This document shows positions 33,801 to 61,915 of a DNA stretch of 64,000 nt, piece after piece. Each line of letters starts with the position of its first letter. Positions within the stretch are counted from its first letter, which is position 1. Both the position numbers and the translations under genes were made by a program. The notes under the pieces are model-generated. The model ran no database searches, was not told the origin of the DNA, and worked only from the letters and a program-made list of their open reading frames with translations. This DNA comes from a virus. The stretch covers positions 1 to 64,000 of the IMG/VR virus record IMGVR_UViG_3300045581_000900. One strand, written 5' to 3'.

Positions 33801-34364
33801 CGTATTGGGCTGGTTGTCGTCGTCGGCTTCGGCCGGCTTGATCAGCGACGGCACGAGGTCCGAGGCGAAACCGACCACTTCGGTCCACAGTTCGACTTCG
33901 AGGCAGTCGCCGTCACGGTCGACAACCGTGCGGAGATATACAACGTCACCGGCCTTCACGTCGCGGTCGAGGAAGTCGCTGCTACGCGGGTAGGCCGAGG
34001 TATTGGACTTGAAAGAAAGGTCGTCGGACTGAATCCAATTGAACTTGCCCTCAACCGTAGTGATACGGGTGTAGGTGCTCTGCAGGTCGTGCTCGAAATA
34101 CTTGAGCAGGGCGTCGTCCATATAGACCTTGGCGTAAGCAAGGTCGACGATCGAACCCGGACGACGCTGCGGCCAGCCATAGCAGACGTCGTTCAGACGG
34201 TCGTACTGGCCGAGCAGAATCGTCTTCTTCTCGTCGCGATCGCTATAGCGGTGCAGGATAGCGTGGGCACCGGCGATATGAGCACGCAGCGGTTCCGTGA
34301 TTTCGGTCGGAACGATGCGGAACTCTTGGAAGACTAATACTTGTGGTTTTACGTAACTAGACAT
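30828..34364 (-). CDS. Tail sheath protein with inserted surface domains
   Basis: 1178 aa; YVKPQVLVFQE N-terminus; C-terminal sheath core (LAAALAGLVSG...QPLTN...RHALTT...RRNVDSMS...PAPLNNIELHL). Confidence 0.88.
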   Translation of the reverse strand: MSSYVKPQVLVFQEFRIVPTEITEPLRAHIAGAHAILHRYSDRDEKKTILLGQYDRLNDVCYGWPQRRPGSIVDLAYAKVYMDDALLKYFEHDLQSTYTRITTVEGKFNWIQSDDLSFKSNTSAYPRSSDFLDRDVKAGDVVYLRTVVDRDGDCLEVELWTEVVGFASDLVPSLIKPAEADDDNQPNTAYYVDEPDADNNYLQVAGRVNCIKLVEVDGSDYSGIQSGDVEEEYTIQVIKSTISGCNAARLRVRSASSRDNVEEVQPADFGEWTNIGTRGLRVKFDLTDVEGCLEAAAANEVVYDNFVTGQKWVVNVKQEFNATEVDSAADGQFEVQPDGDIAGAYNGAKNDVYIVEVTKGGTFDAVEDGDLVGFPEITVRTVKGLDFSGPTEVVENGGEVGIGTNGVKVVIKAPGKVEAIDLDNGGSTYESAPTVVLSAPDDPTGVQATATCTINQAGSVNSITITNPGSGYYNPPSVTFEGGEGTGAVAQAFIDAKLRKGDKFYVAVVSSKAGPVRKLILRDDLPSEMRDTYIRASTVKTPVRVVADTNITLSGLQNIDGVMVESGNRVLVVNQDEETENGVYVAAEGAWTRATDADTTQELVKNIYFGVTAGVTYEGSGWVLTNSGSVIPGTTPIRFQRDDEAIDERYVPLDLKLFIKDNIEISRVRPEADQLTNYWFEDTQVCVQEGITAYHPEWTSAGAEQPLPVEKGKVYAEYREFLAELADEVNSISDVADLDDIAGQLHPDNPLKWGVYKALSNSNGTVVKYTAVAHPVEYHPENYRVTGPDLDSWVQVLERIKGRDDMYNLIPLTYDRLVQNLWAAHVGAESNEIANNWKAAFFSLKAEPKQLVVGQNALIGGVLGNVMEDEMLATLKDDPNATGSQFTLLQVPTGTNFASGYFITNDVRPGDIVRYNFSVDQFGEEQYEEYVVDQVLSENSLLLYTGADAAVTVPQRFEIWHNRNRNEVAEDLAQQAGSLSNRRICAVWPDQVGEAGITQPGYYLAAALAGLVSGVVPHQPLTNVEVAGFDDFTRSYKYFNETQLNRMAEAGVWIVTEDRDGTPHTRHALTTDNLDLNRREEMIRRNVDSMSYLFLRRLRPFIGRTNVQPGMLRRLKFEVETIINFLANNGNTEELGSQLISGEIRKLQVHPLLKDRIEIVLDLVVPAPLNNIELHLVV

Positions 34365-37110: not shown

Positions 37111-37138
37111 ATATACCCTGTTTTTGTCGGTTATTTAG
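37111..37138 (-). promoter_or_regulatory. Putative phage promoter CTAAATA-N14-GGTATAT
   Basis: One of three copies with identical 14 nt spacing, each upstream of an island gene. Confidence 0.75.
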
Positions 37139-39371: not shown

Positions 39372-40196
39372 TCATCGGCGTTTGAACTCGCCGTAGAGGA
39401 CGGCCCCGGGAGACTTAACCTCCCGCTCGATGGCCTTTCGGTCCTTATCGGCCTTCACGAGAAAGGCGTCGATCAGGGCTTCGGTGTCCTCGACCGAAGC
39501 GACCAAGTCACGAGCTTTCAGGAGTTCACGCAACTCCTGCAGGCTCGGCTTGGACTCGCCCTTGGTTCGCACGGCGTTAGCCATGCGAACGATGAGGCGA
39601 CACGCCTGCGATGGAGCCCCCGTGCTCTTGCGAAGCACGTCGGTTTCGATGTTCTCCGGCAAGAACTCCATCGTTACCCGGAAGCAGCGACGCTTCACAG
39701 CCTCCGGGATATCGCCCTCCTCGTTTGCCGTGAGGACGACGAACATCCTCTTGAGGTCTGCCTGATGCATGTGATGCCGAGCGTCCGGCACCCGACCATG
39801 CTGCAGGAAATCGAGGATCAGCGGATAGAACCTCGATCCGGCTTTTTCCACCTCGTCGAGGGTCACAACTACGTCGTGGTGCTTCGTGGCCTTAACAGCC
39901 CGGAGAAGCTGACCGTCCATGTAGGCCTCGTCGGCGTGATTAACACCAACGGCGACCTTCCCGATATCCACGCCCTGATTGACCTCTTCATTTGTCAACC
40001 AAGGATGGCAGGGAATGAAATAGTGCATCGCCCCCCTGCCGCGGGCGAAGCAATCGGCGAAGAAGGTCTTGCCGGTGCCGGGCGAACCGACGAGCAGTAC
40101 CGCTCGCATCGTCGCCGTGATCGACGCCAGCCACTTAGCCGCCAAACCCTCACCACGGCGAGCGTGGTAGTTGGGGAGCAATGTTTCAACAGACAT
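39372..40196 (-). CDS. MoxR-like AAA+ ATPase
   Basis: 274 aa; Walker A GSPGTGKT, Walker B VVVTLDEVEK, sensor I LTAN, Arg finger KRRC. Confidence 0.88.
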   Translation of the reverse strand: MSVETLLPNYHARRGEGLAAKWLASITATMRAVLLVGSPGTGKTFFADCFARGRGAMHYFIPCHPWLTNEEVNQGVDIGKVAVGVNHADEAYMDGQLLRAVKATKHHDVVVTLDEVEKAGSRFYPLILDFLQHGRVPDARHHMHQADLKRMFVVLTANEEGDIPEAVKRRCFRVTMEFLPENIETDVLRKSTGAPSQACRLIVRMANAVRTKGESKPSLQELRELLKARDLVASVEDTEALIDAFLVKADKDRKAIEREVKSPGAVLYGEFKRR

Positions 40197-40237: not shown

Positions 40238-40265
40238 ATATGCCGCAATTTGGCCGATTATTTAG
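40238..40265 (-). promoter_or_regulatory. Putative phage promoter CTAAATA-N14-GGCATAT
   Basis: Second copy, upstream of the ATPase. Confidence 0.75.
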
Positions 40266-40976: not shown

Positions 40977-41004
40977 ATATGCCAGCCTTCAGCCCCCTAT
41001 TTAG
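40977..41004 (-). promoter_or_regulatory. Putative phage promoter CTAAATA-N14-GGCATAT
   Basis: Third copy. Confidence 0.75.
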
Positions 41005-42555: not shown

Positions 42556-42945
42556 TTACTCTGCGGATTGCATGGCCGCAGATGCCGCGGCTTGCAGTGT
42601 CAGTACAGCATTAGCGATTGCAGGTTGATCGGCGGCGAGAGCAGCCACGTCGCGAAACGTGGACTGCTTCTCAGCCTGTCCGCCAATCCCCGACGCCGCC
42701 AGCACCGCATCAAGCTGCTGATTTACAGCAGCGAGACCATTGTGCCGGGCTGCGGCGGTTTTCTCCTGCTCGGCCGTATAGAGCACATGGAGCTTTTGAG
42801 CAGCGGCCCACATTTCCGCGGCTTCGCCCTCAGTCGACGGCGAGATGCCGGCGGCAGCGAGCTTTTCGAAGAAATAGGGGGCAGCAAGTTGGGCCACAAC
42901 CGTGGCGTAAGCCTGCTCTGCTGCTTCCTTAATGTTATCAGCCAT
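42556..42945 (-). CDS. Ala-rich head-associated protein
   Basis: 129 aa; AAGGAG RBS; KEA, KLA, KTA motifs. Confidence 0.65.
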   Translation of the reverse strand: MADNIKEAAEQAYATVVAQLAAPYFFEKLAAAGISPSTEGEAAEMWAAAQKLHVLYTAEQEKTAAARHNGLAAVNQQLDAVLAASGIGGQAEKQSTFRDVAALAADQPAIANAVLTLQAAASAAMQSAE

Positions 42946-42973
42946 TTTTAGTGCTCCTTGTTATTTATACGGC

Positions 42974-43900
42974 TCAGACAAACGTTACCTTAGCGAGACC
43001 GTTCGTGTGACCGAACGAGCCGCCTTGCGTGTTATAGGCGAAGTACTCAAGCATGTAGGCCTCACGACGGATATACATCGTGGTGGGCTCAAGCTCGTAG
43101 TTCTTGCCGATGAACTTCGGCGAGGCGAACATGTACAACACGTCGTTCGGGACGAGGTTCCGCTTGATCGTGACGATCCAGCGGCAGTTGAGGAAGTTGG
43201 TCTCCGCCCAACCGTTCTTGATGATGTCCTGCGAGAAGTCACCACCCATCTCGTCGCGACCGAACTTGAGGAGTTCCTTGATCGTGATGTTATTCACGAG
43301 GCAGGTCTCAACCTCAAAGTGGCTGGGAGTCGAGGGCATAACCTTCAGGGCATCAACAATCGTCTCGCGGGTGATACCGCCCGAGATCGTGACGTTCTGC
43401 GGAACGCCCGAAAGCGGGTTGTTGGTGTCAACCGTACCGACAGCGGCGTCCATCGCGGTGATGAACTTCGAGTCCTCTTCGGCGAGCATGTCCTTGATCA
43501 TGTTGTCGCTGAGCACCTGACGGATGTCGATGACATACGTGCGGAGTTCGTCGACGTCCTTCACAGCACGGGGCGACACGATCCGGTCAAACATGACGCG
43601 GTAACGCGGGCCACGGATGTAGAAGTTGATCGGGAGCGTCGCAAACGGAAGCGACACAGCCGCCGGGGAATCGGGCTCCTTGTCGACCACCTTCACCGGC
43701 TTGTCCGTGTCAACCTGACGATCGAGTTCGTCGTTGGTGATGGTCAGCGGCGGGATGATCCGACGGTAGAACCCGTCTTCACGCATCTTGGTACGCGTGA
43801 AGTCGTTAACCGCATCAATGGCCTGCTTCTGCATGCCGGGAGTGTCAAGCTGCTCAAAGAGCGTTTCATTGAGCAACTGGATTTCTTGCTGAGTGGGCAT
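42974..43900 (-). CDS. Major capsid protein (HK97 fold expected)
   Basis: 308 aa from ATG 43900 with GGAGG RBS; strong codon bias; protease-scaffold-decoration-capsid gene order. Confidence 0.75.
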   Translation of the reverse strand: MPTQQEIQLLNETLFEQLDTPGMQKQAIDAVNDFTRTKMREDGFYRRIIPPLTITNDELDRQVDTDKPVKVVDKEPDSPAAVSLPFATLPINFYIRGPRYRVMFDRIVSPRAVKDVDELRTYVIDIRQVLSDNMIKDMLAEEDSKFITAMDAAVGTVDTNNPLSGVPQNVTISGGITRETIVDALKVMPSTPSHFEVETCLVNNITIKELLKFGRDEMGGDFSQDIIKNGWAETNFLNCRWIVTIKRNLVPNDVLYMFASPKFIGKNYELEPTTMYIRREAYMLEYFAYNTQGGSFGHTNGLAKVTFV

Positions 43901-43903
43901 TTT

Positions 43904-43921
43904 AAAGACCTCCATGTCTTC
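43904..43921 (-). promoter_or_regulatory. CsrA/RsmA-type hairpin over the capsid RBS
   Basis: GAAGAC-ATGGAG-GTCTTT. Confidence 0.55.
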
Positions 43922-43935
43922 TGTTAGGGATTAAT

Positions 43936-47860: not shown

Positions 47861-49654
47861 CTACATAAGTCGGTTGGTGCGGATGTCGCGTGTCTCGGCC
47901 TGAATCTTGTCCCGCTCAGCCCGGAGTTTGTCCATCTCCAGAATCTGCTTCACGTCAAAATCAGCCAGACTGCCAGCTTCGAGCCGCTTTCGCAGCACGG
48001 ACTGAATCATGCCCGGCGAATCGACAAGGTTCGGGGCCAACTCGGAAATCTCGTTAAACGCCATGGCCACGTCTTGCGGATCATAGCCCGAGATTACAGG
48101 GTCATTAAGCACAAGGTCGTGCAGGACGCCCTTGGCCCGAATCGTTTTCAATGCCTGCTCGTGATCGGCATCGGTGAGCGATTGAAAGTGTTCTTTTGTC
48201 TTGTCTTTCTTGCCGTCACCATGCAGCATCTTGCCGATCTGCCCAGTCACGCCTTCTTGGCTCGCACCGATTAAACCGCCGACCATTTTCACTGGCGTTG
48301 TAATACCAATTTTGTTGTCTTTCAGTATCGAGTTTAATCCGCCAGACGTGTCCTTCGCGACTTGTTTTCCTCCGGCGAGTAACGCGTTGATCGGGTCCTT
48401 GGTAGCCTGACTTATCTGTGTAAACGGATTTTTTGGCTCCGGGACGCTATCGCGGGTTGCTCTTCCGTCGGCGACTCTTTTTTCATGCTCCGCAATGCTG
48501 TCGTCCCACGGTTTAAAAAGCTCGTCGACATATTCTTCGGTGCTTTGTTCGCCACGAGCCGCTTCTTCGCGGTCCAGTTTTTTGTCGATGGACTTGGTGC
48601 TGGTCAGCGGCGGCGAATCCTTTGAGCCAGCGAAATCCCGGGCGGTGAACGACGTGCGACCGGCGAACGGGTCGGTAGGCATTAAGCCGCCTGTTAAGTA
48701 CGGTTCTTGCAGAGCTTTGCGGGTTTTTGCGGCCTGCACGCGGGCGTCAAGTCCGCCGGCTTCTTTTAACGTCAGTGGTTCGTCAGCGGGATTGTGCAAG
48801 ATAGAGCCTGTAATAAACTCTGGTGCTTCTTTCTTACCAAATCCCGCATCAGCTTTTTTTGTGGCTACCCGGCTCTGTGCCTCGTTGTAGTGCTCAACGG
48901 TGCCAATCACGTCTTCCACAAGCTTGTACAGCGGGTCATGCCCGTAGTGGTTCTTGCCGCTGTCTGCCTGCTTCGTAAAGTGCGGGTACACCGCGGCGAT
49001 CTTTTGCAGGACGCTCACGCCGCTGGGACCAAGCCGCAAGCCGACCTCACGCAGGGCGTCTCCAAACGGCATATTGCCGGGCGTGCGGAAATACGTATTT
49101 AACTCTTCAAGGCTGTTCGCGGCTTTCTGATATGCCGCGGCGGCTTGCCGCCGCGTTTCTTCTGCCGCACGCAGTGCGGCATTTTTTTCGCTTTGGGCCC
49201 GCATTACAGCCGCGTGCTCGTCACGCGGTGGCGGGGTCCATGTCTTCTCGGGCAGAGCCACACCGGCACTCGCGGCCTTCTGCATCGCGTCCCGGCGGCG
49301 GTTTAAAAAGCCAGACGGCGGTACTGCATACTCGGTCGAGACGAGTTCGGACCGTTTCAGTTCCGCAGATGTCTTCACGTTCTCGGGGTACAGGGCTTCA
49401 AGAATCACGCGAACGTCAGCCAACGGAAACTCAGCCGCCTTTTCCAGCGTGTTTTCGCCGCCTTCTCGCTGCTTTGTCGTCCGGCCGGTGTTATAGGCAT
49501 GCACCATCAGGTTAACGTGCCCGGACGGAATATTGGCGTCGCTGGCACTCTTGATAATCGCGTCATTGGGGCTCATGCCTTCGTTAACAAGCGAGGCGGC
49601 CTTCTCAATGGCGGAGATTAGCTTCCGCTCGGCTTCCTTGGTGAGTGTACGCAT
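47861..49654 (-). CDS. Putative internal head protein
   Basis: 597 aa, helical, more than 10 K-x-A motifs. Confidence 0.55.
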   Translation of the reverse strand: MRTLTKEAERKLISAIEKAASLVNEGMSPNDAIIKSASDANIPSGHVNLMVHAYNTGRTTKQREGGENTLEKAAEFPLADVRVILEALYPENVKTSAELKRSELVSTEYAVPPSGFLNRRRDAMQKAASAGVALPEKTWTPPPRDEHAAVMRAQSEKNAALRAAEETRRQAAAAYQKAANSLEELNTYFRTPGNMPFGDALREVGLRLGPSGVSVLQKIAAVYPHFTKQADSGKNHYGHDPLYKLVEDVIGTVEHYNEAQSRVATKKADAGFGKKEAPEFITGSILHNPADEPLTLKEAGGLDARVQAAKTRKALQEPYLTGGLMPTDPFAGRTSFTARDFAGSKDSPPLTSTKSIDKKLDREEAARGEQSTEEYVDELFKPWDDSIAEHEKRVADGRATRDSVPEPKNPFTQISQATKDPINALLAGGKQVAKDTSGGLNSILKDNKIGITTPVKMVGGLIGASQEGVTGQIGKMLHGDGKKDKTKEHFQSLTDADHEQALKTIRAKGVLHDLVLNDPVISGYDPQDVAMAFNEISELAPNLVDSPGMIQSVLRKRLEAGSLADFDVKQILEMDKLRAERDKIQAETRDIRTNRLM

Positions 49655-50990: not shown

Positions 50991-53384
50991 TTAAATGTTA
51001 GCGGAAGGCCCAAGATCGACATCGCCGGCCGACTCCTCGGGGAACGGCTCGATGGTCTTCTGCTTGAGGAAGAGGATCACGTCGCCCAACATCTCGAACG
51101 CGTTGCGGAGCGAATCTTCCAGTTCCGGCATATCGGCCTTGCCGTAGCGATCGGCGAACCGGTCGCCATGCCAATAGAACATGAACAGGATGCGGCCCAG
51201 CTTGTCGAGACCCTTGGTAAGCTCACCCATGTAGCGGTCCACAAGGCCGTCATCCCGCACGGCCCGAAGCATGGTGCCGATCATGGCGGTGTCAAACACC
51301 TCACGCTGGCCAGTTTGGGCCGCCTGCATCACCTGCTGCACGGCACCCTGATCCAGTTGCGTGTTGGGGTTGTACACGCTGCGATCCGTCTGGCTAGCCG
51401 ACATACCCGGCACGGGCACACCGACGTCGATGCCAAGCTGCGTGGGGACGCTCGTCCCCATGATGGTCTCGCCGCCCATGACCGGCCCCGGGTCTGCCGG
51501 GGCTGTGGGGGCGTTCTGGATCATCATCGGCGAGCCATACGGGTTTGCGTACTTCACGTGGCAGGCAAACTTCCGCTTAGCCTTGGCACGCGAAAGAATT
51601 TCGCGTGCATTTTTTTCGCGAAGGCCGTGCTTGGCGACCAGCGAAACAAGGGCTTGCTTCTCCGAAAGCTCCTTCTCGATCAGTTGTTGCTTCGGGCTGT
51701 GAATCTCGACGGCCGTGCCGTTGTGATACACCGTCAGGCTCGACAGCTTCTGCATGATTACAAGCTGGGCGTCAGCCAGATTGCCCGGCATCAGCGGCGG
51801 ATTGTCGCTCTCGCCGCAGCCGCAGGAGCCCTGACCGCCCTCAGCCGCGTCGGCCACATCGTCTTCGCCCGGAGCACACTTTAAGAGCTTATACGTGCTC
51901 GGCACGAAGATGTCGCCCATGCTGGAGCGGATCGAGCCGCCGCCCTTGGCGTTTAAATGAATTCTGACGCCGTCGCGGTACTTGTCGTAGTTCAGCGGGT
52001 CGGTGTAGCAGCAGGGCGAAATTGAGCCCTTGGGCGGGAACTTGGAGTGATCCTCCATGTGAACTTCGTAGGCATTTCCGCCGAACTCAGTCTCGCCGTA
52101 CTCACGAATCACGCGGAACGGCACCGTGGTATCGCCCGACTTGCAAATCGCCATGTACCGGCCGTTTTTGGAGAGACTGGTGGCGTCAGGCAGGCCGTTG
52201 AGCCATGTATCAAATTCGTCGCCTTCCACGCGGGAGAAGCAGAATACGTGGTCGGCACGGGTGTTGATCCACTCAGGCCTGCCTTCGGTACGGACGACGG
52301 TCACAAAGTCAGACCGCTTGGCGGGCCCTTGTGGATATACCGCGACGTAGCACTTTTCGATCTCGCCCGGCTTGACTAGCACCATGTACAGGCCGCTCTG
52401 GGTGGGATTGAACAGTTTTTGCTCAACCTGAATCTGGTACGGCACCGAGACGTTATCCCGATCCCGCTGGTCGAGAATAAGCACGCCATCCCGCAGCAGC
52501 TTTTCTTGGTCTTCCTCGGTATGCCCGGGCGGAAGAGCCGTCTGCGTCGTGGCGTCGTACGTAATGACTTTCAGCGTCTCTTTCGCCTTGGGCGTCTCCG
52601 GGGCGTCAGAAAGCACGCTGGCGATCTTAGTCGCGTTCTGGCGGGCACTGGCGGCACTGATAGCCTCGCTAATAACGTCTAAACCGTGGAATTCGTCAAT
52701 CGCCTGAGCCAGATGCGGGGCGTACTGGCAGGTTTTAACAAGAGCCGAAATCGTATCCATTCCGGCCTGCTTGAGAAACGCCTTGAGGTTCAGCTTGTGG
52801 CCGAGTTCTTCAAACGCCAGCTTCGTGTTCATCGTGGCGGTCTTGGCCAGTGTCGGCATCACCGCGGTCATCATCTCCTTCAGCGTCGGTTGGGCCGAGC
52901 CGAACTTGGCGGGGCTGCGGGAAAGCTGCGTAAAATCAGGCTGCCGCTGGCCGAACTGGGTGAGATTCTTATCAATGCCGCTGCCCAGAATGCTGGGCTT
53001 GCGGTTGACGAGATAGTTGACCCAGTTTTCCTTGAGCGGGACGAACATATCCTGATTCTTGATATACAGGAGTTCGTGGCCTTTGAGGTCGCCGTTCAGG
53101 AAGAAAACCGGGGCATACAGCCACATGGAGCCGACCTTGAACGCAAAAACACCGACAGCCTTGGTGTTTTCCCGATTGCGGTCGAGAAGTTGAAAGCCGA
53201 TCTCGTGGTCCAAAAGCTTCGGAGCAGAATCCCGAAGATAGGCGTGGGCCAGATTAGAAAAAGCCTGTTCAAACGCCACGTCGTCACCGCGGCCACCAAT
53301 CTCGGCGGTTTTAGTGCGGTCGTGAGACCGGACGACGTTTAACCAATGCTTCCACGAGGCTTCTTTTGACTTTTTATTAAACAC
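50991..53384 (-). CDS. Large putative head protein
   Basis: Start moved to GTG 53384, which has a GGAGG RBS; K-x-A motifs (KEA, KTA, KLA, KQA, KIA, KYA). Confidence 0.6.
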   Translation of the reverse strand: MFNKKSKEASWKHWLNVVRSHDRTKTAEIGGRGDDVAFEQAFSNLAHAYLRDSAPKLLDHEIGFQLLDRNRENTKAVGVFAFKVGSMWLYAPVFFLNGDLKGHELLYIKNQDMFVPLKENWVNYLVNRKPSILGSGIDKNLTQFGQRQPDFTQLSRSPAKFGSAQPTLKEMMTAVMPTLAKTATMNTKLAFEELGHKLNLKAFLKQAGMDTISALVKTCQYAPHLAQAIDEFHGLDVISEAISAASARQNATKIASVLSDAPETPKAKETLKVITYDATTQTALPPGHTEEDQEKLLRDGVLILDQRDRDNVSVPYQIQVEQKLFNPTQSGLYMVLVKPGEIEKCYVAVYPQGPAKRSDFVTVVRTEGRPEWINTRADHVFCFSRVEGDEFDTWLNGLPDATSLSKNGRYMAICKSGDTTVPFRVIREYGETEFGGNAYEVHMEDHSKFPPKGSISPCCYTDPLNYDKYRDGVRIHLNAKGGGSIRSSMGDIFVPSTYKLLKCAPGEDDVADAAEGGQGSCGCGESDNPPLMPGNLADAQLVIMQKLSSLTVYHNGTAVEIHSPKQQLIEKELSEKQALVSLVAKHGLREKNAREILSRAKAKRKFACHVKYANPYGSPMMIQNAPTAPADPGPVMGGETIMGTSVPTQLGIDVGVPVPGMSASQTDRSVYNPNTQLDQGAVQQVMQAAQTGQREVFDTAMIGTMLRAVRDDGLVDRYMGELTKGLDKLGRILFMFYWHGDRFADRYGKADMPELEDSLRNAFEMLGDVILFLKQKTIEPFPEESAGDVDLGPSANI

Positions 53385-53387
53385 AGA

Positions 53388-53403
53388 GCCACCTCCATGC
53401 GGC
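53388..53403 (-). promoter_or_regulatory. CsrA/RsmA-type hairpin over RBS
   Basis: GCCGC-ATGGAG-GTGGC. Confidence 0.55.
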
Positions 53404-53429
53404 AGATATTGAACCAATCCCTTATCAAT

Positions 53430-55403
53430 TTACAGTGTTTTAGGCGGCGAGCCTAGAGGACCCGGCAGTGGACTTGCGGGGGACATGCGGGGTACTTGCG
53501 GGGTACTTGGGGGGTACTTGGGGGCTGGCTCCGGTTTCCAGCCGCTTGTTGTGCCAGAAACGCCGAATTGTTCGCCGCGGGCCAAAGCCGGCACATAGCT
53601 GCTCCCGGACGTATCACTGGCACGGCCGCGGTGCACGCTATTAAGAAATCCGCGTTCCTGATACGACCCGAGCATTCTTGTCATCCAGTCGGGGTCGTTG
53701 GAGATATTCGCCATGCCACGAACCATTTCAGATTCAAACGGCGGCGGTTCTTTGTGGGCTTGGATGTTTGTAATTCCGTACTTCTTCAGATTATCGGCCA
53801 CGCTTTTTGTAATCTTCGTTCCGATCGAGTAATGCAGGGCGGGTTCTTCCAGATAGTGATTTGAAAGTGTCGCCGGGTTGCCCGCAATGGCCCCGTCTCT
53901 GGGTTTCCACGATCGTTCCAGCATGGAATACGGCACAATGTCGTCCGGGGCGTAATCGCCGTACTCGTCATTGAGCCGCACATGATTAATCAAGCCGCGA
54001 GCGACCAGTTCGATATTCCGGCGGTGAGCGGTAATGCCTGAGTTCTTCAATACATCACGCATGGCAGAAACGAAATATCGCCGGCCCTCGCCGACGCCTT
54101 TGTGCCTGACGATCTCCGCCGGGTTGGGCATGCCATCAGACAGCACGTCGCCGGCTTCGAGCATGTCGCCTTTCTTGACAGAGACCACGCGGTCAGCAGG
54201 GACGTAGTGCTCTTCGCCGTCCACCACGACGTACGAACCGCCTTGAGCCGCCGGGCGAATTTCCTGCACCCGGCCCTCTCGCTGGGCATGTGTGGCCCCG
54301 TCGGGATATTTCTTGGGCACCTGCACCAGAGCGTTAATAGCCTTGAAGCCGCCAATAGACTTGGCCCCGCCGACACCGCCGGAGTGCTTTGAACTAAGCT
54401 GAGACTGGCTGACCGGCTCCGAGAGAGCTTGAGCCGCGGCCACGCCCACATAGTCGCCTACGGGCGGCAAACGGCCCTTTTCGCGGTAGCCGACGTCTTT
54501 GGCGTACACGCCGCCGTCTTCAGGGCCGCCCACCGTCGGGCTGCGGACAAGGATGTCTTTGACGCCCATCTCTTTAAGGTCTTTGAGAATCTTGGGCGTG
54601 AGCAGCGTGTTTCGCTTGTAGGGGCCGATCGGGCGGGCCAGAAACGCCCCTTCGTTGTCGGGATCGTCCACATCGGAGGGCATACCGCGGTTCGAGGCTG
54701 TGGTCGCTCGCTCTTCGTCATCATCGTCGTCTGCCGTTACAAGCAGGCGGTGAGCCATCTGCGTAAGCTGCTTGCCGTAGAAGCCGGCGTCGGCCGTGGC
54801 TGTTTTGACGTCAATGACGCCCTTGCGGGTGCCGAAGCTCGCGGCGAAGTATTCCGCCGGCGTTAAGCCTCGCCCGTAAGACCGCAGCACCGGCAGCGGA
54901 ATCGGCTCGTCCTTGTGGTCGACGTACTGCAAATCGGCACCGATCAACGAGTTCAGCGTAAACTTATTGCCGGACCCGCCGCCCAACACCTGCTGCACCA
55001 GCGGGTTATTGTTCTCTAACGCCTCGTTGTAAACATCGTCGATGAGTTTCTTCTGCGTATCTGCCGCCAACTGCAGAATCTTTAGCTGCCGCTCTTTTTC
55101 CGGCATGTTCGGCGTGGCCATGATGCCGCGGAGCTTTTTACGCACGTCAAGTTCCGCCCGGCGGCTGGCAAACGTGGGCTTGATGTCTTTTAAGCCCATC
55201 GACAAACCGCCAGTCGAATACGCCACGTCGCGGGAGACGTCATGAATCTTCTTCATGACTTCGCGGTACTTGTCCGGGTGCCGCTTTGCTAGGTCCGTCG
55301 CCAGCGAGCCCATATTTTTCTTGTCGAGCACGCGGTTGTAATCCCGCATGTCTTCAGGCAGAGCTTCGTTGATGAGCAGTTGGCCTAGCGTCGTTTTTAA
55401 CAC
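53430..55403 (-). CDS. rpoC: RNA polymerase beta' subunit, C-terminal part
   Basis: 657 aa; TTLGQLLIN, bridge helix GLTPAEYF...GTRKGVIDVKTATADAGFYGKQL, trigger loop VGVAAAQALSEPVSQSQLSSKHSGG, HRRNIELVARGL. Confidence 0.93.
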   Translation of the reverse strand: MLKTTLGQLLINEALPEDMRDYNRVLDKKNMGSLATDLAKRHPDKYREVMKKIHDVSRDVAYSTGGLSMGLKDIKPTFASRRAELDVRKKLRGIMATPNMPEKERQLKILQLAADTQKKLIDDVYNEALENNNPLVQQVLGGGSGNKFTLNSLIGADLQYVDHKDEPIPLPVLRSYGRGLTPAEYFAASFGTRKGVIDVKTATADAGFYGKQLTQMAHRLLVTADDDDDEERATTASNRGMPSDVDDPDNEGAFLARPIGPYKRNTLLTPKILKDLKEMGVKDILVRSPTVGGPEDGGVYAKDVGYREKGRLPPVGDYVGVAAAQALSEPVSQSQLSSKHSGGVGGAKSIGGFKAINALVQVPKKYPDGATHAQREGRVQEIRPAAQGGSYVVVDGEEHYVPADRVVSVKKGDMLEAGDVLSDGMPNPAEIVRHKGVGEGRRYFVSAMRDVLKNSGITAHRRNIELVARGLINHVRLNDEYGDYAPDDIVPYSMLERSWKPRDGAIAGNPATLSNHYLEEPALHYSIGTKITKSVADNLKKYGITNIQAHKEPPPFESEMVRGMANISNDPDWMTRMLGSYQERGFLNSVHRGRASDTSGSSYVPALARGEQFGVSGTTSGWKPEPAPKYPPSTPQVPRMSPASPLPGPLGSPPKTL

Positions 55404-55412
55404 GGCAATTCA

Positions 55413-55637
55413 TTAGTTTTTTGGCGGCGGAGGAAGTTCATTCACTGTCGGGGCCGGCGTGGTAACGCCGGCCATTTTTAACACCGTAGCAAAGTCATTG
55501 TCGCCGACAGCGGAATACACAATCCCCTCTGCCACGTGAGTTGCGACAAAGATCGGGTTCTTTAGGTCGTCTTCAATGACAACCGTATGAGCCTTCGTCT
55601 CTGCCGGAATTAAATTATGCTGCGTTTTAACCAGCAT
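55413..55637 (-). CDS. Small hypothetical protein
   Basis: 74 aa; overlaps the upstream stop. Confidence 0.6.
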   Translation of the reverse strand: MLVKTQHNLIPAETKAHTVVIEDDLKNPIFVATHVAEGIVYSAVGDNDFATVLKMAGVTTPAPTVNELPPPPKN

Positions 55638-56343
55638 GATTCGTCAAACTCCGGCACAGGGCGGCGACGGCACTTGCTTTCGTTTGAAGATCGAACGTTT
55701 CTGGCGTCGACGGGGTTGAAGACACACTGGGATCAATCGGCCGCCCGATAGAGCGGGCAGCGTGCGTATCTACCGCGTCCCACCAGTTGGCCATCTTCGG
55801 GGCACCGGCGTCGGGCGGCATAGGAGCACCGCCAGCCGCGGCCGGATCACCGCCCGGCGGAGCCGCAGGCGGAGGAGCCATTGGACCGCCGGGAAGGGCG
55901 GTTTCCGCCGGCGGAGCACCGGTTGTGCCGGGCGGCAGCACCAGCGATTCAGGAGCAACCTGCACGCCCATCGCGTTCATGATCGCCGTAAGTTGCTGCT
56001 GCATGTTGTAAAGCCGGTAATCGAGCATTTGCATCATCTGCTCAGGCTTAAGTTTCTGACCGCCTGCGGCACCACCAGCGGGAGCCGGGGCTGGCTGTGC
56101 GGGCGGCAGAGCACCCAGCATCGACGGGTCCATCATTCCCGGCGGAACAGCACCGCCAGCCGCCGCAGGGTCGCCAGCCGGAGGAGCCGCACCCATCGCT
56201 GCCTGCATCGGGTCAGCGGGCGGAACAGCACCTTGAGCCGCGGCAGCCGGGTCCATACCGCCACCGGGAGGCACCACAGCCGACTTTTCAAACAGAGCCC
56301 GCTTGGCGAGCGATAACAATTCGGGATTTACCGTATAGGACAT
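55627..56343 (-). CDS. Pro/Ala/Gly-rich low-complexity protein
   Basis: 238 aa; GGAGG RBS; KRA, KSA, KMA motifs; DPAAA repeats. Confidence 0.7.
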   Translation of the reverse strand: MSYTVNPELLSLAKRALFEKSAVVPPGGGMDPAAAAQGAVPPADPMQAAMGAAPPAGDPAAAGGAVPPGMMDPSMLGALPPAQPAPAPAGGAAGGQKLKPEQMMQMLDYRLYNMQQQLTAIMNAMGVQVAPESLVLPPGTTGAPPAETALPGGPMAPPPAAPPGGDPAAAGGAPMPPDAGAPKMANWWDAVDTHAARSIGRPIDPSVSSTPSTPETFDLQTKASAVAALCRSLTNHAG

Positions 56344-56344
56344 G

Positions 56345-56360
56345 ACTACCTCCGTGTAAT
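56345..56360 (-). promoter_or_regulatory. CsrA/RsmA-type hairpin over RBS
   Basis: ATTAC-ACGGAG-GTAGT. Confidence 0.5.
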
Positions 56361-56366
56361 ATCAAG

Positions 56367-59300
56367 TCAAGGCTTATCTTCTACGATGTGAACCGGCGTG
56401 TCCACATCAATCTCGCCGCGTCGGTACGCCGCGAGAGCGTCCTTTTTGCTGCGGTAGACCCGTGGCTTGGAGCGGTTGTTCATTTTGCTGGAAGCTAAGT
56501 ATACACCAGTCTGGTAATCTTTATTCGGCACATAATGGGCTTTGAAGTTCGCCGTGGCAAAAAGGTTCTTGCTCGGCAGCATCTTTTCCACGGCTTCTTT
56601 TGCCGCTTCTTCGGTACTGGGGACGTGGTACTGCATGGCGTCCCCGTCGAAATCAGCCCCGAAACCCTTGGTAATTACCGGATTTACTTCCATAACTTTG
56701 TTTTTAGTCAGCCGCGGATAAAACGCCATCACGCCGTAGCGGTGCAGCACAGGAGCCCGGTTGATCACAATGGGCTTGGCGTTCATCTGCGTGTTTAACT
56801 CGTCAAAAGCGGCTTTATTTTTGTCTTCTACAGCCCGCAGGGCGTTCATTCGGGGCATTCCGCGGCGGACGAGGCCCCGGACGACGAACGGCTTGTAAAT
56901 CTCCCACGCTTTTTCCTCGGGGAGAGCGACTTCGTCCATGTCGAGGTCGGGATTCGGGGTAATCACCGCCCGCCCCACAAGGTCGACGGTGCTGGAGAGC
57001 AGTTTTCGCTGCATGGTGCCGAATTTGGGGCTGTCGCCGAAAATTTTCGACAAGAAACCGCGGACGTTACGTTCGACGTTCTTGGGGTGCTGCGGATCAC
57101 CAAGACCCGTCACGGCTTTCATCGAGTCATACAGAGATAAACGCTCGTTACCATAATCGGCAAACGTCCCGGAGGCTTCTTTTAAGACGTTATTGGAGTC
57201 GAGCAGTTCTTTGTAGAGATAATTCGCGTCATCCACGAGCGGGAGTTTCTTGGAGCCCATAGTCGAAACAGGGCGGAAAGCCGGCGGCAGCACACCCACT
57301 TTCGTGAGCATCCAGTCTTTCGGGTGCACGTTGGTTGTTTCGGCACCTTTTAAAAAGCCCAACCGGCGAACAGCGGCGTCTCGAACTGTCTTGCGGCCTG
57401 ATTTGATGTCTTCGCGAGCCTGCTCAATTGCCTTCGGCAGATTAATGCTCTTCAACGCATCATGAATGGCCGCAGGTCCCGTTTTGTCGCCTAACTTGTC
57501 TTGGCCGGCCAGAATGCCGCGGAATTGCTTTTCGGTAAGCCCAAGAACGCGGCGAATGGGTTCTTCCATGATCGGGTTGGGCATCGGCTCGTGTAACGTG
57601 ATCTTCGCCCACCGATTGCCGCCATGACCGCCCGTAAGCGTCTCATCGAACAAGCCGCCTTTGATGGGCTTGAGATTGCCTTTCCAGTCGACGGTCTCGG
57701 CACTGGTGATTTCACGCTCGCCGGCTAGTTCGTCGACGGATTTGTCTGTTAAAGCCATGATGTGCGTCTTAGTTCCCGTACGCACTGTATTCACGCCAGA
57801 CGCCCGCAGTTGATTCACAAACTTTTCGTAGACGTGCGGAACTTTGGGGAGCGGCGGGTCGTAACCGGCCATGAATTGCGTCCAGTACTCAGGATTAGCT
57901 TGGCCGCGTACCATCTTGGAGTCGCGAACTACTTTGCCGGCACCGTGGGAAAGCAAAGCTCCCAGTTCGAGCATGCCGACGCGTTTAGCCCCTTCTGATC
58001 CGCCCTTGGCTGGTGTGCCTTCGGCTGTATAGCCGCCGGTCGAGCGTCCTTGGCCCTTGGATTCGGCCGTGTGATGGAGTTTCATGAAGAACCGGTGGCC
58101 CGTTAAGATTCCCTTGATCTTCCGGCCAGATTCGGGGTCAGTCAGGTCTTCCGTGTCAGAGAGCCCGTGTTTGGCAAGTTCCTGCTGGGCGAACTCAATT
58201 AAGTCCTTCTGGTCGTCGAAATCTTTGATCTTGAACGGCTGCCCGGTCTTAGCCGCGACTTTGCCCAGTGCCGCCTCAACGATCTGGGCGGGGTTTACAC
58301 GGCTAATAAGTCCGAGGGGGCTGACCAGTATCTCCATCGGGTTTCCGTCTTTATCGGTCGGCATCTGCTGATCTGGGACGATTTCAGATACCACGCCCTT
58401 GTCGCCGAATCTGCCGGTGATCTTGTCGCCCACTTCCATCTGGGCTTTTGATTTCACGACAACCGAAACACCCTTCTTGGTGTGCTCGACGTCCGTAACA
58501 ATCCCGGGAGAGTGGTGCTCCCACGTCAGAGTCTCGTTCGCAAACGCACCGCCGCGGCCTCGATGCACCTTGCCGTATACCTGTTCGCGTTTCTTGGCCA
58601 CGAGAACGAGCGGGTCACCGAAGTTCACAACGGTGCCTTTCTTGATCGCCCCGTTGTCGTCGAAGCTCTCCAGCATCTTCTTGTCGTACTCGGACGGGAA
58701 CAACGACATGAACGCCTTTTTGCCGACGTGGGTGTTGTCGTCCCACTCGGCTTCGTGCTGATACATGTGCTGGCTGGTAAGTCTCTTGGCCGCAGACTCA
58801 GAGATCACCACGGCGTCTTCGTAGTTTCTTCCGCGGAACGGCAGATAGCCCACGCGAAGGTTTAATCCAAGAGCCGCGGAGCCGTTCTTATCGGTAAAGT
58901 TGGACGTGGCAATAAGCTGCCCGGGCTTGATAGTGTCGCCGGGCTGCACAGTCGGCGTCTGTGTCCAGAACGTCTTCCGATTGAACGGCATGTCGTTATA
59001 CAAGTCGATAGTCTGCTTTTTGCCGTCTTGATCGCGAATGATGATCTCGTCTGGCGTAATAGCTTCGACCTTGCCGGCAAACTGTGATTTAATCGCTCCC
59101 AGTTTCTCGCCCATCTCGTCTTCGTGCGAGGTGCCGGGCAGGTCGGCTTTTTCCGACTGCACAAACGGTGACTCGGCGTTTTCCAGCGGGAGAGCCTGTG
59201 TAAACATACGGCTGCCCATGATGACACGCTGGCCCTTTACCATGGACTTCATCGGCACCATGTTTGTGAGAGCCGAGAACGTGCTGTCCATGTTGGGTAC

Positions 59301-60794
59301 GGTGTACTGGGCGTCTTTTTTGGGCACGTACTTAATCTTGCCGTTCACCAGTGCCGCGACCATCGGAAGATCGGACTTCTCTTCGCCGGGGAACATCAGC
59401 GGCATGTCGGCGAGTTCCTGCGGCGTCTTGTACTCAGTCTCGCCCGTCTGGGAGTTCTTCACGGGCACGACAAACGTGTGCAAATTCTGGGCTGACTTGC
59501 GGGCACCGGCGGCAAATCGCATATCGACGCCTACCTTGCCGCTCTCGGGCGTGCGGAGATAGTCGATAAAGCCGAAATGACTCGGCTGCACGCTGCGGGA
59601 TTCGGCGGGAACGGCGTCGAGCGAGCCGATGCCGCCTTCGCCCAGTCGCGTGACGCGGGTCTGGTGATCGAAGATTTCAGCCGGGTTGATCTCTTCGAGG
59701 CTGGAACCAAGACCTGACCCGATAAGGGCCGCGGTGATCGACTTGTTAAACACGCCGGAAGGAATGTGATCCAGTGACTTTTTGGCCGTGGCTTTCCAGA
59801 GCAGTTGCCGCAGGGCTGTCTTGTCTTTGACGAACCGCTCCGAGATCAAATCCTCGGGGCCGAAGACCTGCTGATACGTCATGCTGTCGCGGTCGTCGCT
59901 GTCGGCTTCTTTACGATTGACGGCGATCAGCTTCTTCGTGATGTCGAGAATCGCGTCGGGGGTGAGATTCTTGTAGGGCTTGCCGAGCGTGCGTTTGGTG
60001 ACCTCTTCGTCCAACTCTGTCTTGTTAAACTCCGCCGCGATGGCCTTGATCTTGGCGATCTGGTCTGCGTTGGCGTCTGGTTTGAAGACAAGGCGTTGAT
60101 AAAGTTTGTCGAGCGTGCCGGCATCGCCCTTCTGCATGTTGACGGCTGTGATCTCATTGCCCCACGCCTCCCGCATCTGCTTGTCGGTGACGCCGAGCGT
60201 CTTCAGCAGGGGCATGAGCGGAATCTTGGCTTGGCCGATTTGAATCTGGAACTCGCCGGTCTTGGGGTCCATGTAATACCGGTGCGAGCGACCTTTGCCG
60301 GGCAGAGTATTGACGTGCGACTCCAGTTCGCCGTTCTCCTTCTCGCGGGTGAACACGCCCGGCCGCAGACGGAGTTGGTGGGCAAGGGTGTATTCAACGC
60401 CTTTGTTCACGAACGTGCCGGAGTCGGTGAGATACGGGACGTTGGCGATCGTAGCTTGGCGGGACGCGACCGGCTGCTGTGTTTTGTTGTCTATGAGCGT
60501 CCACGTGCCGGTGAGCTTCCGGGCCAGAGAGCCACGCGTGAGCACGGCCTTCTTTTGGTCCTTGCGGCTGAACCGTTCGGGGCCGGCGTAGCCGACGTTC
60601 TGCAACTGCAGCGTGTACAGATCGTTTTGAATCGGCTCGATGCTCGACGCACTTCGCAGAGCTTCGTTGAAGATATTGTCGCGAAGAGCGGGTACGTCGC
60701 CGAACGCTCGCGTCTGCGGCTGAGCGATCGGCTGCTTTGGCAGCGGCGGAGCAAGCGGCGGAAGTTGCGGGGCTGGTTGCAGCGGATCAGGCAT
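56367..60794 (-). CDS. rpoB: RNA polymerase beta subunit fused to the N-terminal (catalytic) part of beta'
   Basis: beta motifs PYLTDSGTF, RTPESGKVG, GRNYEDAVVISE, VGDKITGRFGDKGVV, MKLHH, GAKRVGMLE; then beta' motifs GGLFDE, VLPPAFRP, INRAPVLHR and the catalytic GADFDGD. Probable start ATG 60794. Confidence 0.95.
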   Translation of the reverse strand: MPDPLQPAPQLPPLAPPLPKQPIAQPQTRAFGDVPALRDNIFNEALRSASSIEPIQNDLYTLQLQNVGYAGPERFSRKDQKKAVLTRGSLARKLTGTWTLIDNKTQQPVASRQATIANVPYLTDSGTFVNKGVEYTLAHQLRLRPGVFTREKENGELESHVNTLPGKGRSHRYYMDPKTGEFQIQIGQAKIPLMPLLKTLGVTDKQMREAWGNEITAVNMQKGDAGTLDKLYQRLVFKPDANADQIAKIKAIAAEFNKTELDEEVTKRTLGKPYKNLTPDAILDITKKLIAVNRKEADSDDRDSMTYQQVFGPEDLISERFVKDKTALRQLLWKATAKKSLDHIPSGVFNKSITAALIGSGLGSSLEEINPAEIFDHQTRVTRLGEGGIGSLDAVPAESRSVQPSHFGFIDYLRTPESGKVGVDMRFAAGARKSAQNLHTFVVPVKNSQTGETEYKTPQELADMPLMFPGEEKSDLPMVAALVNGKIKYVPKKDAQYTVPNMDSTFSALTNMVPMKSMVKGQRVIMGSRMFTQALPLENAESPFVQSEKADLPGTSHEDEMGEKLGAIKSQFAGKVEAITPDEIIIRDQDGKKQTIDLYNDMPFNRKTFWTQTPTVQPGDTIKPGQLIATSNFTDKNGSAALGLNLRVGYLPFRGRNYEDAVVISESAAKRLTSQHMYQHEAEWDDNTHVGKKAFMSLFPSEYDKKMLESFDDNGAIKKGTVVNFGDPLVLVAKKREQVYGKVHRGRGGAFANETLTWEHHSPGIVTDVEHTKKGVSVVVKSKAQMEVGDKITGRFGDKGVVSEIVPDQQMPTDKDGNPMEILVSPLGLISRVNPAQIVEAALGKVAAKTGQPFKIKDFDDQKDLIEFAQQELAKHGLSDTEDLTDPESGRKIKGILTGHRFFMKLHHTAESKGQGRSTGGYTAEGTPAKGGSEGAKRVGMLELGALLSHGAGKVVRDSKMVRGQANPEYWTQFMAGYDPPLPKVPHVYEKFVNQLRASGVNTVRTGTKTHIMALTDKSVDELAGEREITSAETVDWKGNLKPIKGGLFDETLTGGHGGNRWAKITLHEPMPNPIMEEPIRRVLGLTEKQFRGILAGQDKLGDKTGPAAIHDALKSINLPKAIEQAREDIKSGRKTVRDAAVRRLGFLKGAETTNVHPKDWMLTKVGVLPPAFRPVSTMGSKKLPLVDDANYLYKELLDSNNVLKEASGTFADYGNERLSLYDSMKAVTGLGDPQHPKNVERNVRGFLSKIFGDSPKFGTMQRKLLSSTVDLVGRAVITPNPDLDMDEVALPEEKAWEIYKPFVVRGLVRRGMPRMNALRAVEDKNKAAFDELNTQMNAKPIVINRAPVLHRYGVMAFYPRLTKNKVMEVNPVITKGFGADFDGDAMQYHVPSTEEAAKEAVEKMLPSKNLFATANFKAHYVPNKDYQTGVYLASSKMNNRSKPRVYRSKKDALAAYRRGEIDVDTPVHIVEDKP

Positions 60795-60799
60795 GGCTC

Positions 60800-61915
60800 T
60801 CACACTGCCGGGGTGTTTTGATTGCCTAACGCCATCGCCTTTACCTGAGCCACTTCACGCGGGTCGATCCACGCTCCGGGCAAAGAAGTTAACCGCTCAC
60901 GAGCTTTGCGGGCCCGGGCAAGTTGCTTTGCCGCCGAGTTTTCTTGTGTCTTGTTATACATGTATGTGCCGCCGACACCTGCTGCTCCCAGACTCGCTAA
61001 CGCGGTCAGAGCAACGGGCAGCGTGATACCGACGTCAGCAAGCGTGCTGCCCCAGCCCTCGTTTTGCTTCAAGCCGTTGTTAGCTCCGTTCCCGCCGCCG
61101 CCAGAGCCAGCCCACGCTTCGGGGCTGGTGTGCACGTAATCCCAGAAACTAGCTCCCTTTTCTTTATACCCGTTAAACGCCGCATCCAAGGCTGCCGCTG
61201 CTTTTTCGTCGGCCACAAGCGTTTTGAAATATTCGTTTCGGGCGTCTTGGATTGCGTTGACGTTTTTTTCTTCTTTTGCTTTTGTATCGCGGCTGTCGAG
61301 CAGCGTGTTGGCCAATGCACCGCCGGCAACAAGGCCCGCAGGCACTGCCGCATACCGTCCGGCCATCGCCAGCCCCTCGTAAAAATTATTGGCGGCTTGC
61401 GGTATGTCAGACGTTGATTTTTGCTGCGACTCCGTCGCAAGTCGGCCAAGATTTGTTAACCCTAGCCCGCCAGCGAGACCAACGCCGCCGCCCATCGCGG
61501 CTCCTGAGAGAGCCGCCCGAAACTTATCTTTCTTCGCTCGATTGGCGTTCAGGTACGCCCCGATCCCGGCTCCCGCTACTGGCAGGCCGTAAAATAAGGC
61601 CTTGTCCAGCGGCGATAACGGACCAGCGGAATCCCACGTTGAAGACAGCTTTTCTACTGGTTGTTCGGCGGTTACGTCTTCGGGCAGAAAGCCAGACGTG
61701 GCAATCGCGTTATAGTCGGGGGCTTTTGGAAGGTGATCGTCCACAAGCTTTTTCTTAGTCCTTTTGAGCAGGTGAAACAGCCCCATGCCGCCCATACCTA
61801 ACGCAGCGTTTGTTAAAAAATTGCCAACGGCCGCGGCATGGTGCCGATCCCAAATCCGTTGGTCGTTTATGGCCCGTTCCGCGGCGGCGGCGGCCGGATT
61901 TGCTTGTTTCTTCAT
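60800..61915 (-). CDS. Gly-zipper hydrophobic protein, putative internal virion/ejection protein
   Basis: 371 aa; several GxxxG hydrophobic helices; begins MKKQA. Confidence 0.55.
   Translation of the reverse strand: MKKQANPAAAAAERAINDQRIWDRHHAAAVGNFLTNAALGMGGMGLFHLLKRTKKKLVDDHLPKAPDYNAIATSGFLPEDVTAEQPVEKLSSTWDSAGPLSPLDKALFYGLPVAGAGIGAYLNANRAKKDKFRAALSGAAMGGGVGLAGGLGLTNLGRLATESQQKSTSDIPQAANNFYEGLAMAGRYAAVPAGLVAGGALANTLLDSRDTKAKEEKNVNAIQDARNEYFKTLVADEKAAAALDAAFNGYKEKGASFWDYVHTSPEAWAGSGGGGNGANNGLKQNEGWGSTLADVGITLPVALTALASLGAAGVGGTYMYNKTQENSAAKQLARARKARERLTSLPGAWIDPREVAQVKAMALGNQNTPAV

Follow-up and report, generated by a model that had tools for sequence, protein, structure and literature searches.

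The window analysed here comprises the first 64 kb (positions 1 to 64,000) of the 111,939-bp IMG/VR virus record IMGVR_UViG_3300045581_000900. It encodes a bacterial-type RNA polymerase (RNAP) in which the β subunit is fused to the N-terminal part of β′ (β′N), and the rest of β′ (β′C) is the product of a separate gene. This layout is no assembly error; hundreds of phage lineages, some of them cultured, have it as a long-standing family trait. The enzyme is probably carried in the virion. The source of the window is an uncultured freshwater jumbo phage. The record was judged to be ~55% complete, and close relatives are 197–212 kb in length, with terminal repeats in some. The sequence is contained in runs from freshwater, lake and wastewater metagenomes, and no RNA run is listed among them.

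All genes of the RNAP locus lie on the minus strand, and are arranged as follows.

56367–60794, minus strand: fused RNAP gene, 1475 amino acids (aa), with ATG at 60794 and TGA at 56367–56369
57774–60794, minus strand: β module, residues ~4–1010
56370–57773, minus strand: β′ N-terminal module, residues ~1011–1478, with the clamp helices and the catalytic double-psi barrel
56637–56651, minus strand: catalytic DFDGD, residues 1385–1389, in the context GADFDGD
55627–56343, minus strand: 238-aa Pro/Ala-rich protein, preceded by a GGAGG ribosome-binding site
55413–55637, minus strand: 74-aa β-rich protein
53430–55403, minus strand: β′C gene, 657 aa, with a TTxGQ motif, the bridge helix and the trigger loop

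The residue numbers are those of P0001, the 1478-residue translation of the full fused open reading frame (ORF; 56367–60803). The likely start at ATG 60794 gives a product of 1475 aa, which corresponds to a 1475-aa protein in the public databases (P0005). The translation of the window β′C gene is referred to as P0002.

Pfam identified Rpb2_3 (residues 369–431, 24.5 bits), Rpb2_6 (575–926, 181 bits), Rpb1_1 (1131–1211) and Rpb1_2 (to residue 1406, 86 bits) in the fused chain, and Rpb1_5 (81 bits) in β′C, which begins VLKTTLGQLL. The scores for the Rpb2 and Rpb1 domains exceed the Pfam gathering thresholds. Alignment of the junction with the E. coli, Acinetobacter and Staphylococcus proteins revealed the C-terminus of β (...LRASGVN) followed by a linker of 4–5 residues and then by β′ from approximately E. 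coli residue 18. The chain ends 89 residues past DFDGD (...VHIVEDKP, TGA), and includes a whole bacterial-type β and the N-terminal 40% of β′ with the DFDGD motif. The fusion and the separate β′C gene, first recognised in the original prediction from the letters and reading frames, are borne out by the ORF map, translation and Pfam, with coordinates and peptides exact.

The catalytic motifs are retained when aligned to E. coli: GADFDGD, the lysines of the β GDK...GDKG motifs, the bridge helix, and the trigger-loop KHSGG. The window enzyme is ~30% identical to bacterial β′, and its β lacks the segments corresponding to E. coli β 230–358, 938–1049 and 1125–1178. A Pro-rich N-terminal extension of ~50 aa on β is found only in the subclade that includes the window, and β′C carries a Pro-rich C-terminal tail. 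In cluster I of the rifampicin pocket, the alignment indicated the substitutions Q513S, F514S, D516E and S531T; that the phage enzyme may be insensitive to rifampicin is a guess only.

Conservation of the layout and position of the β′ cut

Contigs from two freshwater runs, possibly of the source sample, span positions 55300–58000 with zero differences (depth 198 and 60), and a contig from a wastewater run is likewise identical where it crosses the end of the fused gene, including its stop codon. Seventy IMG/VR loci related to β′C (28–96% identity), from independent assemblies, were fetched with their flanks. The fused ORF ends at P0001 residues 1474–1477 in 65 of the 65 loci whose DNA reaches that point, and the match to a separate β′C begins at P0002 residue 1–3 in nearly all of the ~70. 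The few exceptions are intein-interrupted or edge-truncated loci, and the broken high-scoring segment pairs are due to inserted inteins.

Representatives of 50%-identity clusters (1.84 billion) were further searched using HMMER with a query that spans the junction (residues 700–1478). In all of the best 150 representatives (44–61% identity), the β/β′ junction lies inside one protein. An intact D[FY]DGD motif is present in 93 of these, and 75 of the 93 end 63–97 residues past the motif and one ends 103 residues past it. For the other 17, the end lies 549–722 residues past the motif and the alignment halts just after DFDGD and picks up again downstream, in line with an intein at that point. The same two-gene layout was found by tblastn against 50,697 phage records in Salmonella phage Arash and in Vibrio phages D69, D148 and D181.

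The fused gene is rich in inteins, and 67 of the 93 cluster representatives are longer than 1560 aa (up to 3350 aa). Recurrent insertion points lie near window residues ~393, ~421 and ~940 and just after DFDGD (homologues P0125–P0274; loci L022, L044, L051, L061, L078, L083, L084, L086, L088, L091 and L109). Inteins were also seen in β′C genes (L059, L061, L065, L069, L074, L091 and L092). In some relatives of ~45–52% identity the β′C frame continues for 300–600 residues (L071, 9944–12757; L086, 9968–13696), and this continuation is either a C-terminal extension or an intein. In D181 and D148, the fused RNAP gene is interrupted by a group I intron (RF00028, 100.7 bits), downstream of which lies a homing-endonuclease gene (4931–5211 and 5225–5842, respectively, in the D181 locus L112); the fused ORF of D69, a close relative of D181, is uninterrupted.

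More distant loci were obtained by a profile-guided scan of IMG/VR. Ten of these (L075, L094, L096, L099, L100, L104–L107 and L109), 24–34% identical to the window, include β and the entire β′ in one ORF of ~2030–2090 aa, or 3190 aa with inteins. Maximum-likelihood trees of concatenated β and β′ were built with three bacterial outgroups (IQ-TREE, LG+G4, ~2000 columns); the model is a single-matrix one, compositional heterogeneity was flagged, and no Helicobacter, Wolbachia or cyanobacterial sequences were included. The fused forms, split and fully fused, make up one clade (SH-like approximate likelihood ratio test, SH-aLRT, 100). Within it, the split forms, i.e. the window clade and the Arash/D69 clade, also make up one clade (ultrafast bootstrap 92, SH-aLRT 91), and 93% of the bootstrap trees require a single change. 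The fully fused forms are sister or basal to the split forms, with weak support (67/51). As the split clade sits beside the fully fused forms in the tree, the most parsimonious order suggested by these sequences would be a fusion of β with β′ first, and then one split downstream of the catalytic barrel and ahead of TTxGR. Hence, what had been taken for an independent rearrangement of this phage is instead an old trait of many lineages, apparently derived from a fully fused β::β′ ancestor.

The position of the cut was determined in a MAFFT alignment with E. coli β′, the unsplit β′ of Vibrio phage Va2, and the fully fused L075 protein. The cut falls after E. coli β′ residue ~568, immediately before KDTTVGR, and the Arash and D69 cuts lie within 4 alignment columns of it. 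The cyanobacterial rpoC2 profile begins at approximately residue 20 of P0002, and the rpoC1 profile extends ~62 positions beyond the end of P0001. For the phiKZ-like Ralstonia phage RP13, the alignment of β′N with the window stops at residue 1438 and the gene ends two codons later, at approximately P0001 residue 1440; the ends of the PHROG profiles agree with a phiKZ-type cut at this position. The window cut is therefore ~20 residues before the cyanobacterial split, which does lie after TTxGR as previously assumed, and ~38 residues after the phiKZ-type split. Likewise, the archaeal A′/A″ boundary is after the bridge helix, at approximately P0002 residue 270 in profile coordinates. The cyanobacterial, phiKZ-type and window lineages thus cut β′ within ~60 residues, at different peptide bonds.

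Subunit composition, sigma factor and probable packaging of the enzyme

Neither of the β′ zinc sites (C70/72/85/88 and C814/888/895/898) is retained in the window. The N-terminal Zn ribbon (E. coli β′ 65–96) is deleted throughout the fused clade. Arash, D69, L090 and the fully fused forms retain all four Cys at the second site, whereas these are replaced in the window subclade. The two RNAP chains together include no cysteine in 2135 residues, compared with 22 cysteines in the E. coli enzyme. The average for the contig is 1.5% Cys, and the probability of finding none in the 2135 RNAP residues is ~2e-15.

No match to the alpha (PF01000, RNA_pol_A_bac) or omega (PF01192) models was found in the contig or in four complete relatives (rated 100% complete), and the same search gave matches in 14 of 14 control genomes. 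The original prediction that no α or ω gene is recognisable thus holds in all five. The contig and each of the four complete relatives have one catalytic (double-psi β-barrel) β′ locus.

The core had been described as a streamlined two-chain enzyme. However, it is accompanied by a sigma factor gene, and a helicase gene is found beyond the window.

16688–17497, minus strand: cysteine-free sigma70-family factor of 269 aa, encoded in the baseplate module
80089–81969 of the contig: SNF2-type helicase, no cysteine

The sigma factor matches Pfam Sigma70_r3 (37 bits) and Sigma70_r4 (27 bits), both above the cut-offs, and matches to the RpoD, FliA and SigBFG models are below theirs. Its AlphaFold (AF2) model (mean confidence, pLDDT, 69) matches 133 sigma chains over ~250 columns, corresponding to sigma2 to sigma4. 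The protein is 27% identical to Arash gp10 (E 4e-16). At least one Sigma70_r4 match is present in every fused-clade genome examined, and homologues of the sigma factor and of the RNAP are on contigs of matching size. When the contig ORFs were compared with the whole Arash genome by tblastn, the fusion, β′C, the sigma factor, the helicase and a few tail proteins were recovered. A sequence CTAAATA-N14-GGYATAT occurs in three exact copies on the minus strand (37111–37138, 40238–40265 and 40977–41004) and in none of 100 shuffles. With its sigma-28-like geometry, it may serve as a promoter recognised by the phage sigma factor.

It is probable that the enzyme is a virion-carried, sigma-using early RNAP and also the only RNAP of the phage. 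Chain 1 would contribute β and β′ ~18–568 (E. coli numbering), carrying both halves of the active site, and chain 2 would contribute the rest of β′, including bridge helix and trigger loop. Assembly of the two would require neither α nor ω, nor, in the window subclade, zinc. The sigma70-family factor would steer the core to phage promoters. Core, sigma factor and SNF2-type helicase would be packed in the capsid and injected alongside the DNA, and early genes would be transcribed without the host RNAP. With a single polymerase set in the genome, newly made copies of this enzyme would probably serve later transcription too.

Virion packaging had been suggested from the place of the RNAP genes among head genes. 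The suggestion is a fair one, but the position of the gene is not its support. The RNAP gene lies ~10 kb from a capsid-like gene within a long same-strand block, and this shows nothing about packaging. The best support is the virion proteome of Arash, in which mass spectrometry detected the fusion protein gp206 more than any other protein (3516 spectra, above the major capsid protein), together with gp216 (1210 spectra), the helicase gp217 (1148) and the sigma factor gp10 (467, 100% coverage) (PMC10585845).

The distribution of cysteine is a second line of evidence. The large proteins without cysteine are a distinct set, consisting of the fusion, β′C, the sigma factor, the helicase, a 1678-aa protein and six others. 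The sheath, baseplate and capsid-like proteins all contain cysteine. Members besides the RNAP and sigma genes are as follows.

19426–20364, 20859–25895, 47861–49654 and 60800–61915: cysteine-free proteins encoded in the window
68090–69835, 80089–81969 (the helicase), 85974–87866, 88335–89741 and 89750–90724: cysteine-free proteins encoded in the contig

The members with homologues in Arash are exactly the four enzymes detected in Arash virions, and for this reason the set may represent a class of packaged and injected cargo, which would be independent though indirect support for packaging. Pro-rich termini were considered as a common mark of these proteins and rejected (Mann-Whitney p = 0.34). 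Four of the proteins begin MPDPL (window 60794), MPDPL (25895), MPDDL (contig 81969) and MPAPF (89741). A start of the form MP[DAN][PD] is found in no cysteine-containing ORF, and may be a common N-terminal signal or due to chance.

Several points weigh against a packaged, sigma-directed enzyme of this kind. For the window phage, packaging is argued from the cysteine-free signature and from homology with Arash, whose enzyme is only ~32% identical to that of the window. The pairing of the sigma factor with the phage core is likewise a suggestion drawn from the genes present: many phages without an RNAP encode sigma factors for the host enzyme, and the flap-tip region, which binds sigma region 4, is 8 residues shorter in the window subclade. 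The claims of a single RNAP and of missing α and ω rest on the complete relatives, as the contig is ~55% complete, and the phage core may still use host α. Finally, the authors of the Arash study note that abundant enzymes may carry over into virion preparations (PMC10585845).

This last point would fit an enzyme with the same two chains that is made after infection and transcribes only middle and late genes, the early genes being read by the host RNAP and the Arash signal being carry-over. In addition, the case for packaging includes no packaging signal or protease site, and gene position is uninformative. However, Arash gp206 tops the spectral counts, exceeds the major capsid protein, and is co-detected with the sigma factor and helicase. 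Moreover, the cysteine-free signature is limited to these enzymes and does not extend to tail or capsid proteins. Since each genome has one RNAP set, there is no second phage enzyme to start the programme. This explanation is therefore considered unlikely, though still credible.

It is quite improbable that the phage sigma factor redirects the host RNAP and the phage core starts transcription with another factor that is not recognised as such, like gp68 of phiKZ or gp226 of AR9 for their enzymes. Sigma genes are indeed common in jumbo phages without an RNAP (PMC7824862), the phage core has the shortened flap tip and has lost the Zn ribbon, and the gap between the two RNAP genes holds conserved genes with no assigned role. 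Against this, the sigma factor gp10 is packaged together with the core in Arash, the sigma gene is in every fused-clade genome examined, and the core retains the β′ clamp helices, the main docking site for sigma factors.

Restoration of a single β::β′ chain by RNA splicing, a split intein or recoding is scarcely conceivable. In its favour, relatives are intein-rich, D181 has its group I intron in the fused gene and the sister clade has the fully fused form. However, Rfam gives no match in 53000–61200, and a group I or II intron is thereby rejected. The cut costs or adds <10 residues relative to the unsplit L075 and Va2 proteins, too few to accommodate the halves of a split intein. Two conserved protein genes, one of which has a Shine-Dalgarno sequence, occupy the gap, and ~70 loci retain both the stop and the start codon. 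Furthermore, gp206 and gp216 of Arash were detected as separate proteins.

A broader claim, held more tentatively than that of a virion-carried early RNAP, is that jumbo phages of a very large, mostly freshwater family inject a complete holoenzyme, consisting of a two-chain core free of zinc, cysteine, α and ω, a sigma70-type factor and an SNF2 helicase. If so, the layout and the total loss of cysteine would be adaptations to the packing of a ~240-kDa polymerase and to its passage through the tail. The family would represent a third independent solution to a virion RNA polymerase, beside those of N4/crAss and phiKZ. It would include the only near-canonical bacterial enzyme among virion RNAPs, and a minimal natural model for assembly independent of α and ω. 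Cellular RNAPs are thought to need α2 as assembly platform, ω as latch and zinc for folding of β′. The window enzyme is recognisably bacterial, yet without α, ω and zinc and with its catalytic subunits cut and joined anew. Thanks to the sister clade with the full fusion and to Arash and D69 as cultured phages, it can be tested directly how a fusion replaces α, why β′ tolerates cuts only in a stretch of ~60 residues (here, in cyanobacteria and plastids, and in phiKZ-type phages), and how a large multisubunit enzyme is packaged and injected with its sigma factor. As lakes and wastewater are rich in members of the family, early transcription that is independent of the host, and probably insensitive to rifampicin, would be a common and overlooked phage strategy.

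Neighbouring genes

The two small genes in the gap between the fused gene and the β′C gene had been regarded as unrelated to the polymerase. Two genes are indeed present, but they are not random neighbours. Both the 238-aa and the 74-aa gene are conserved in place in relatives with β′C of at least ~68% identity, and the stop of the 74-aa gene is 9 nucleotides (nt) ahead of the β′C start. In relatives of ~50% identity the gap is 2–5 kb, yet an ORF of 72–83 aa remains directly upstream of β′C, and these ORFs are homologous to the 74-aa protein (hhalign probability 87–90%). Neither gap protein has a match in Pfam, PHROGs or NCBIfam. The AF2 model of the 74-aa protein (pLDDT 88) has five strands and one helix, with no Foldseek match in the PDB (best E 0.59) and VIA-align Z ≤ 2.5.

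Other genes in the window are as follows.

60800–61915, minus strand: 371-aa cysteine-free protein, immediately upstream of the fused RNAP gene
42974–43915, minus strand: weak match to a major head protein (phrog_2522, E 2e-5), in keeping with the gene direction of the block
30828–34364: sheath-like protein
14037–15686: Baseplate_J protein

The 371-aa protein has no Pfam, PHROGs or NCBIfam match. The stop of its gene is only 5 nt before the ATG of the fused RNAP gene, and the two are therefore probably co-translated. In Arash and D69, the same position is taken by a portal gene (annotated as such in Arash only) and an ORF of ~95 aa. Two long ORFs overlap on opposite strands at the capsid-like gene (42974–43915, minus, and 42932–43927, plus), and an AAA_5 (MoxR/dynein-type) ATPase (48 bits; 39372–40196, minus) lies inside the virion gene block. 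Family searches gave no match for most other ORFs of the contig.

Comparison with known RNA polymerases

Phage RNAPs in the searchable literature are of the phiKZ/AR9 type, the crAss type, that of P23-45, and mReC. The mReC group (Weinheimer and Aylward 2020) has separate β and β′ proteins of at least 800 aa with an NADxDGD motif in β′; the window has a fused chain and GADFDGD. For each contig, its supplement gives β and β′ as separate ORFs, and no IMG/VR sample id of the present loci occurs there as an mReC contig. Moraphages are unrelated and have no RNAP.

Enzymes of the phiKZ/AR9 type (Chimalliviridae and relatives; PMC7598289, PMC7824862) resemble that of the window in being phage-encoded, in lacking α and ω, and in having β′ cut shortly past the catalytic barrel. 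In these phages, a virion-packaged enzyme starts the infection, and an SNF2-type helicase gene is linked to that for β′C. Unlike the window, they have β in 2–3 unfused pieces, two enzyme sets per genome (virion and non-virion) and no sigma70-family factor. The contrast drawn earlier with these enzymes stands in that their similarity to bacterial RNAP is far weaker, and is to be qualified in that their β′ cut is only ~38 residues away.

Cyanobacterial and plastid RNAPs, with γ (rpoC1) and β′/β″ (rpoC2), also have β′ cut between the catalytic barrel and the half with the secondary channel and bridge helix. However, the cut is after TTxGR, β is unfused, and α and ω are present. In the rpoB-rpoC fusions of Helicobacter and Wolbachia, as in the window, the C-terminus of β is joined to the N-terminus of β′, but these fusions contain the whole β′ and are cellular enzymes that use α and ω. 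The distinction from them made in the original prediction is confirmed by the scores of the window against the NCBIfam models NF007172 and NF011417 (372 and 293 bits), which are far under the cut-offs (5372 and 4632). In the tree, the phage clade is also apart from the three bacterial outgroups, among which Helicobacter and Wolbachia are not represented.

The fully fused β::β′ enzymes of uncultured phages, on jumbo-phage contigs, have the same β–β′ junction and Zn-ribbon deletion as the window, and differ in that β′ is unbroken where the window gene is cut.

The closest known counterparts are Arash (gp206, 1525 aa, and gp216, 606 aa; OQ632216, PMC10585845) and the Vibrio phages D69, D148 and D181, which share the β::β′N fusion. 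In Arash and D69, the cut is likewise before TTxGR, with a separate same-strand β′C gene and a deleted Zn ribbon, and Arash further has homologues of the sigma factor (gp10) and helicase (gp217). In the tree, the Arash/D69 clade is the sister group of the window clade. The Arash and Vibrio enzymes are only ~32% and ~26% identical to that of the window, respectively. Arash differs in that the four Cys of the second Zn site are kept, nine other genes occupy the gap, with no detectable homologues of the two window gap genes, and Pro-rich termini are missing.

The Arash proteins are annotated plainly as β and β′, with the fusion unmentioned (PMC10585845). The layout is not described in PMC10585845, PMC7481178, PMC7824862, PMC12619734, PMC13573597 or PMC13282480 (open-access and bioRxiv literature). 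Thus, although the arrangement is not confined to the window, being present in cultured Arash, D69, D148 and D181, the fused-and-split layout is new to the searchable open-access and bioRxiv literature, the proteins being public but mis-simplified as "β" and "β′". The fully fused sister clade, the order of fusion and then split, the placement of the cut relative to the cyanobacterial and phiKZ-type cuts, the conserved 74-aa neighbour, and the D181 group I intron may also be new. The window enzyme belongs with the Arash-type fused-and-split phage RNAPs, an as yet unnamed family.

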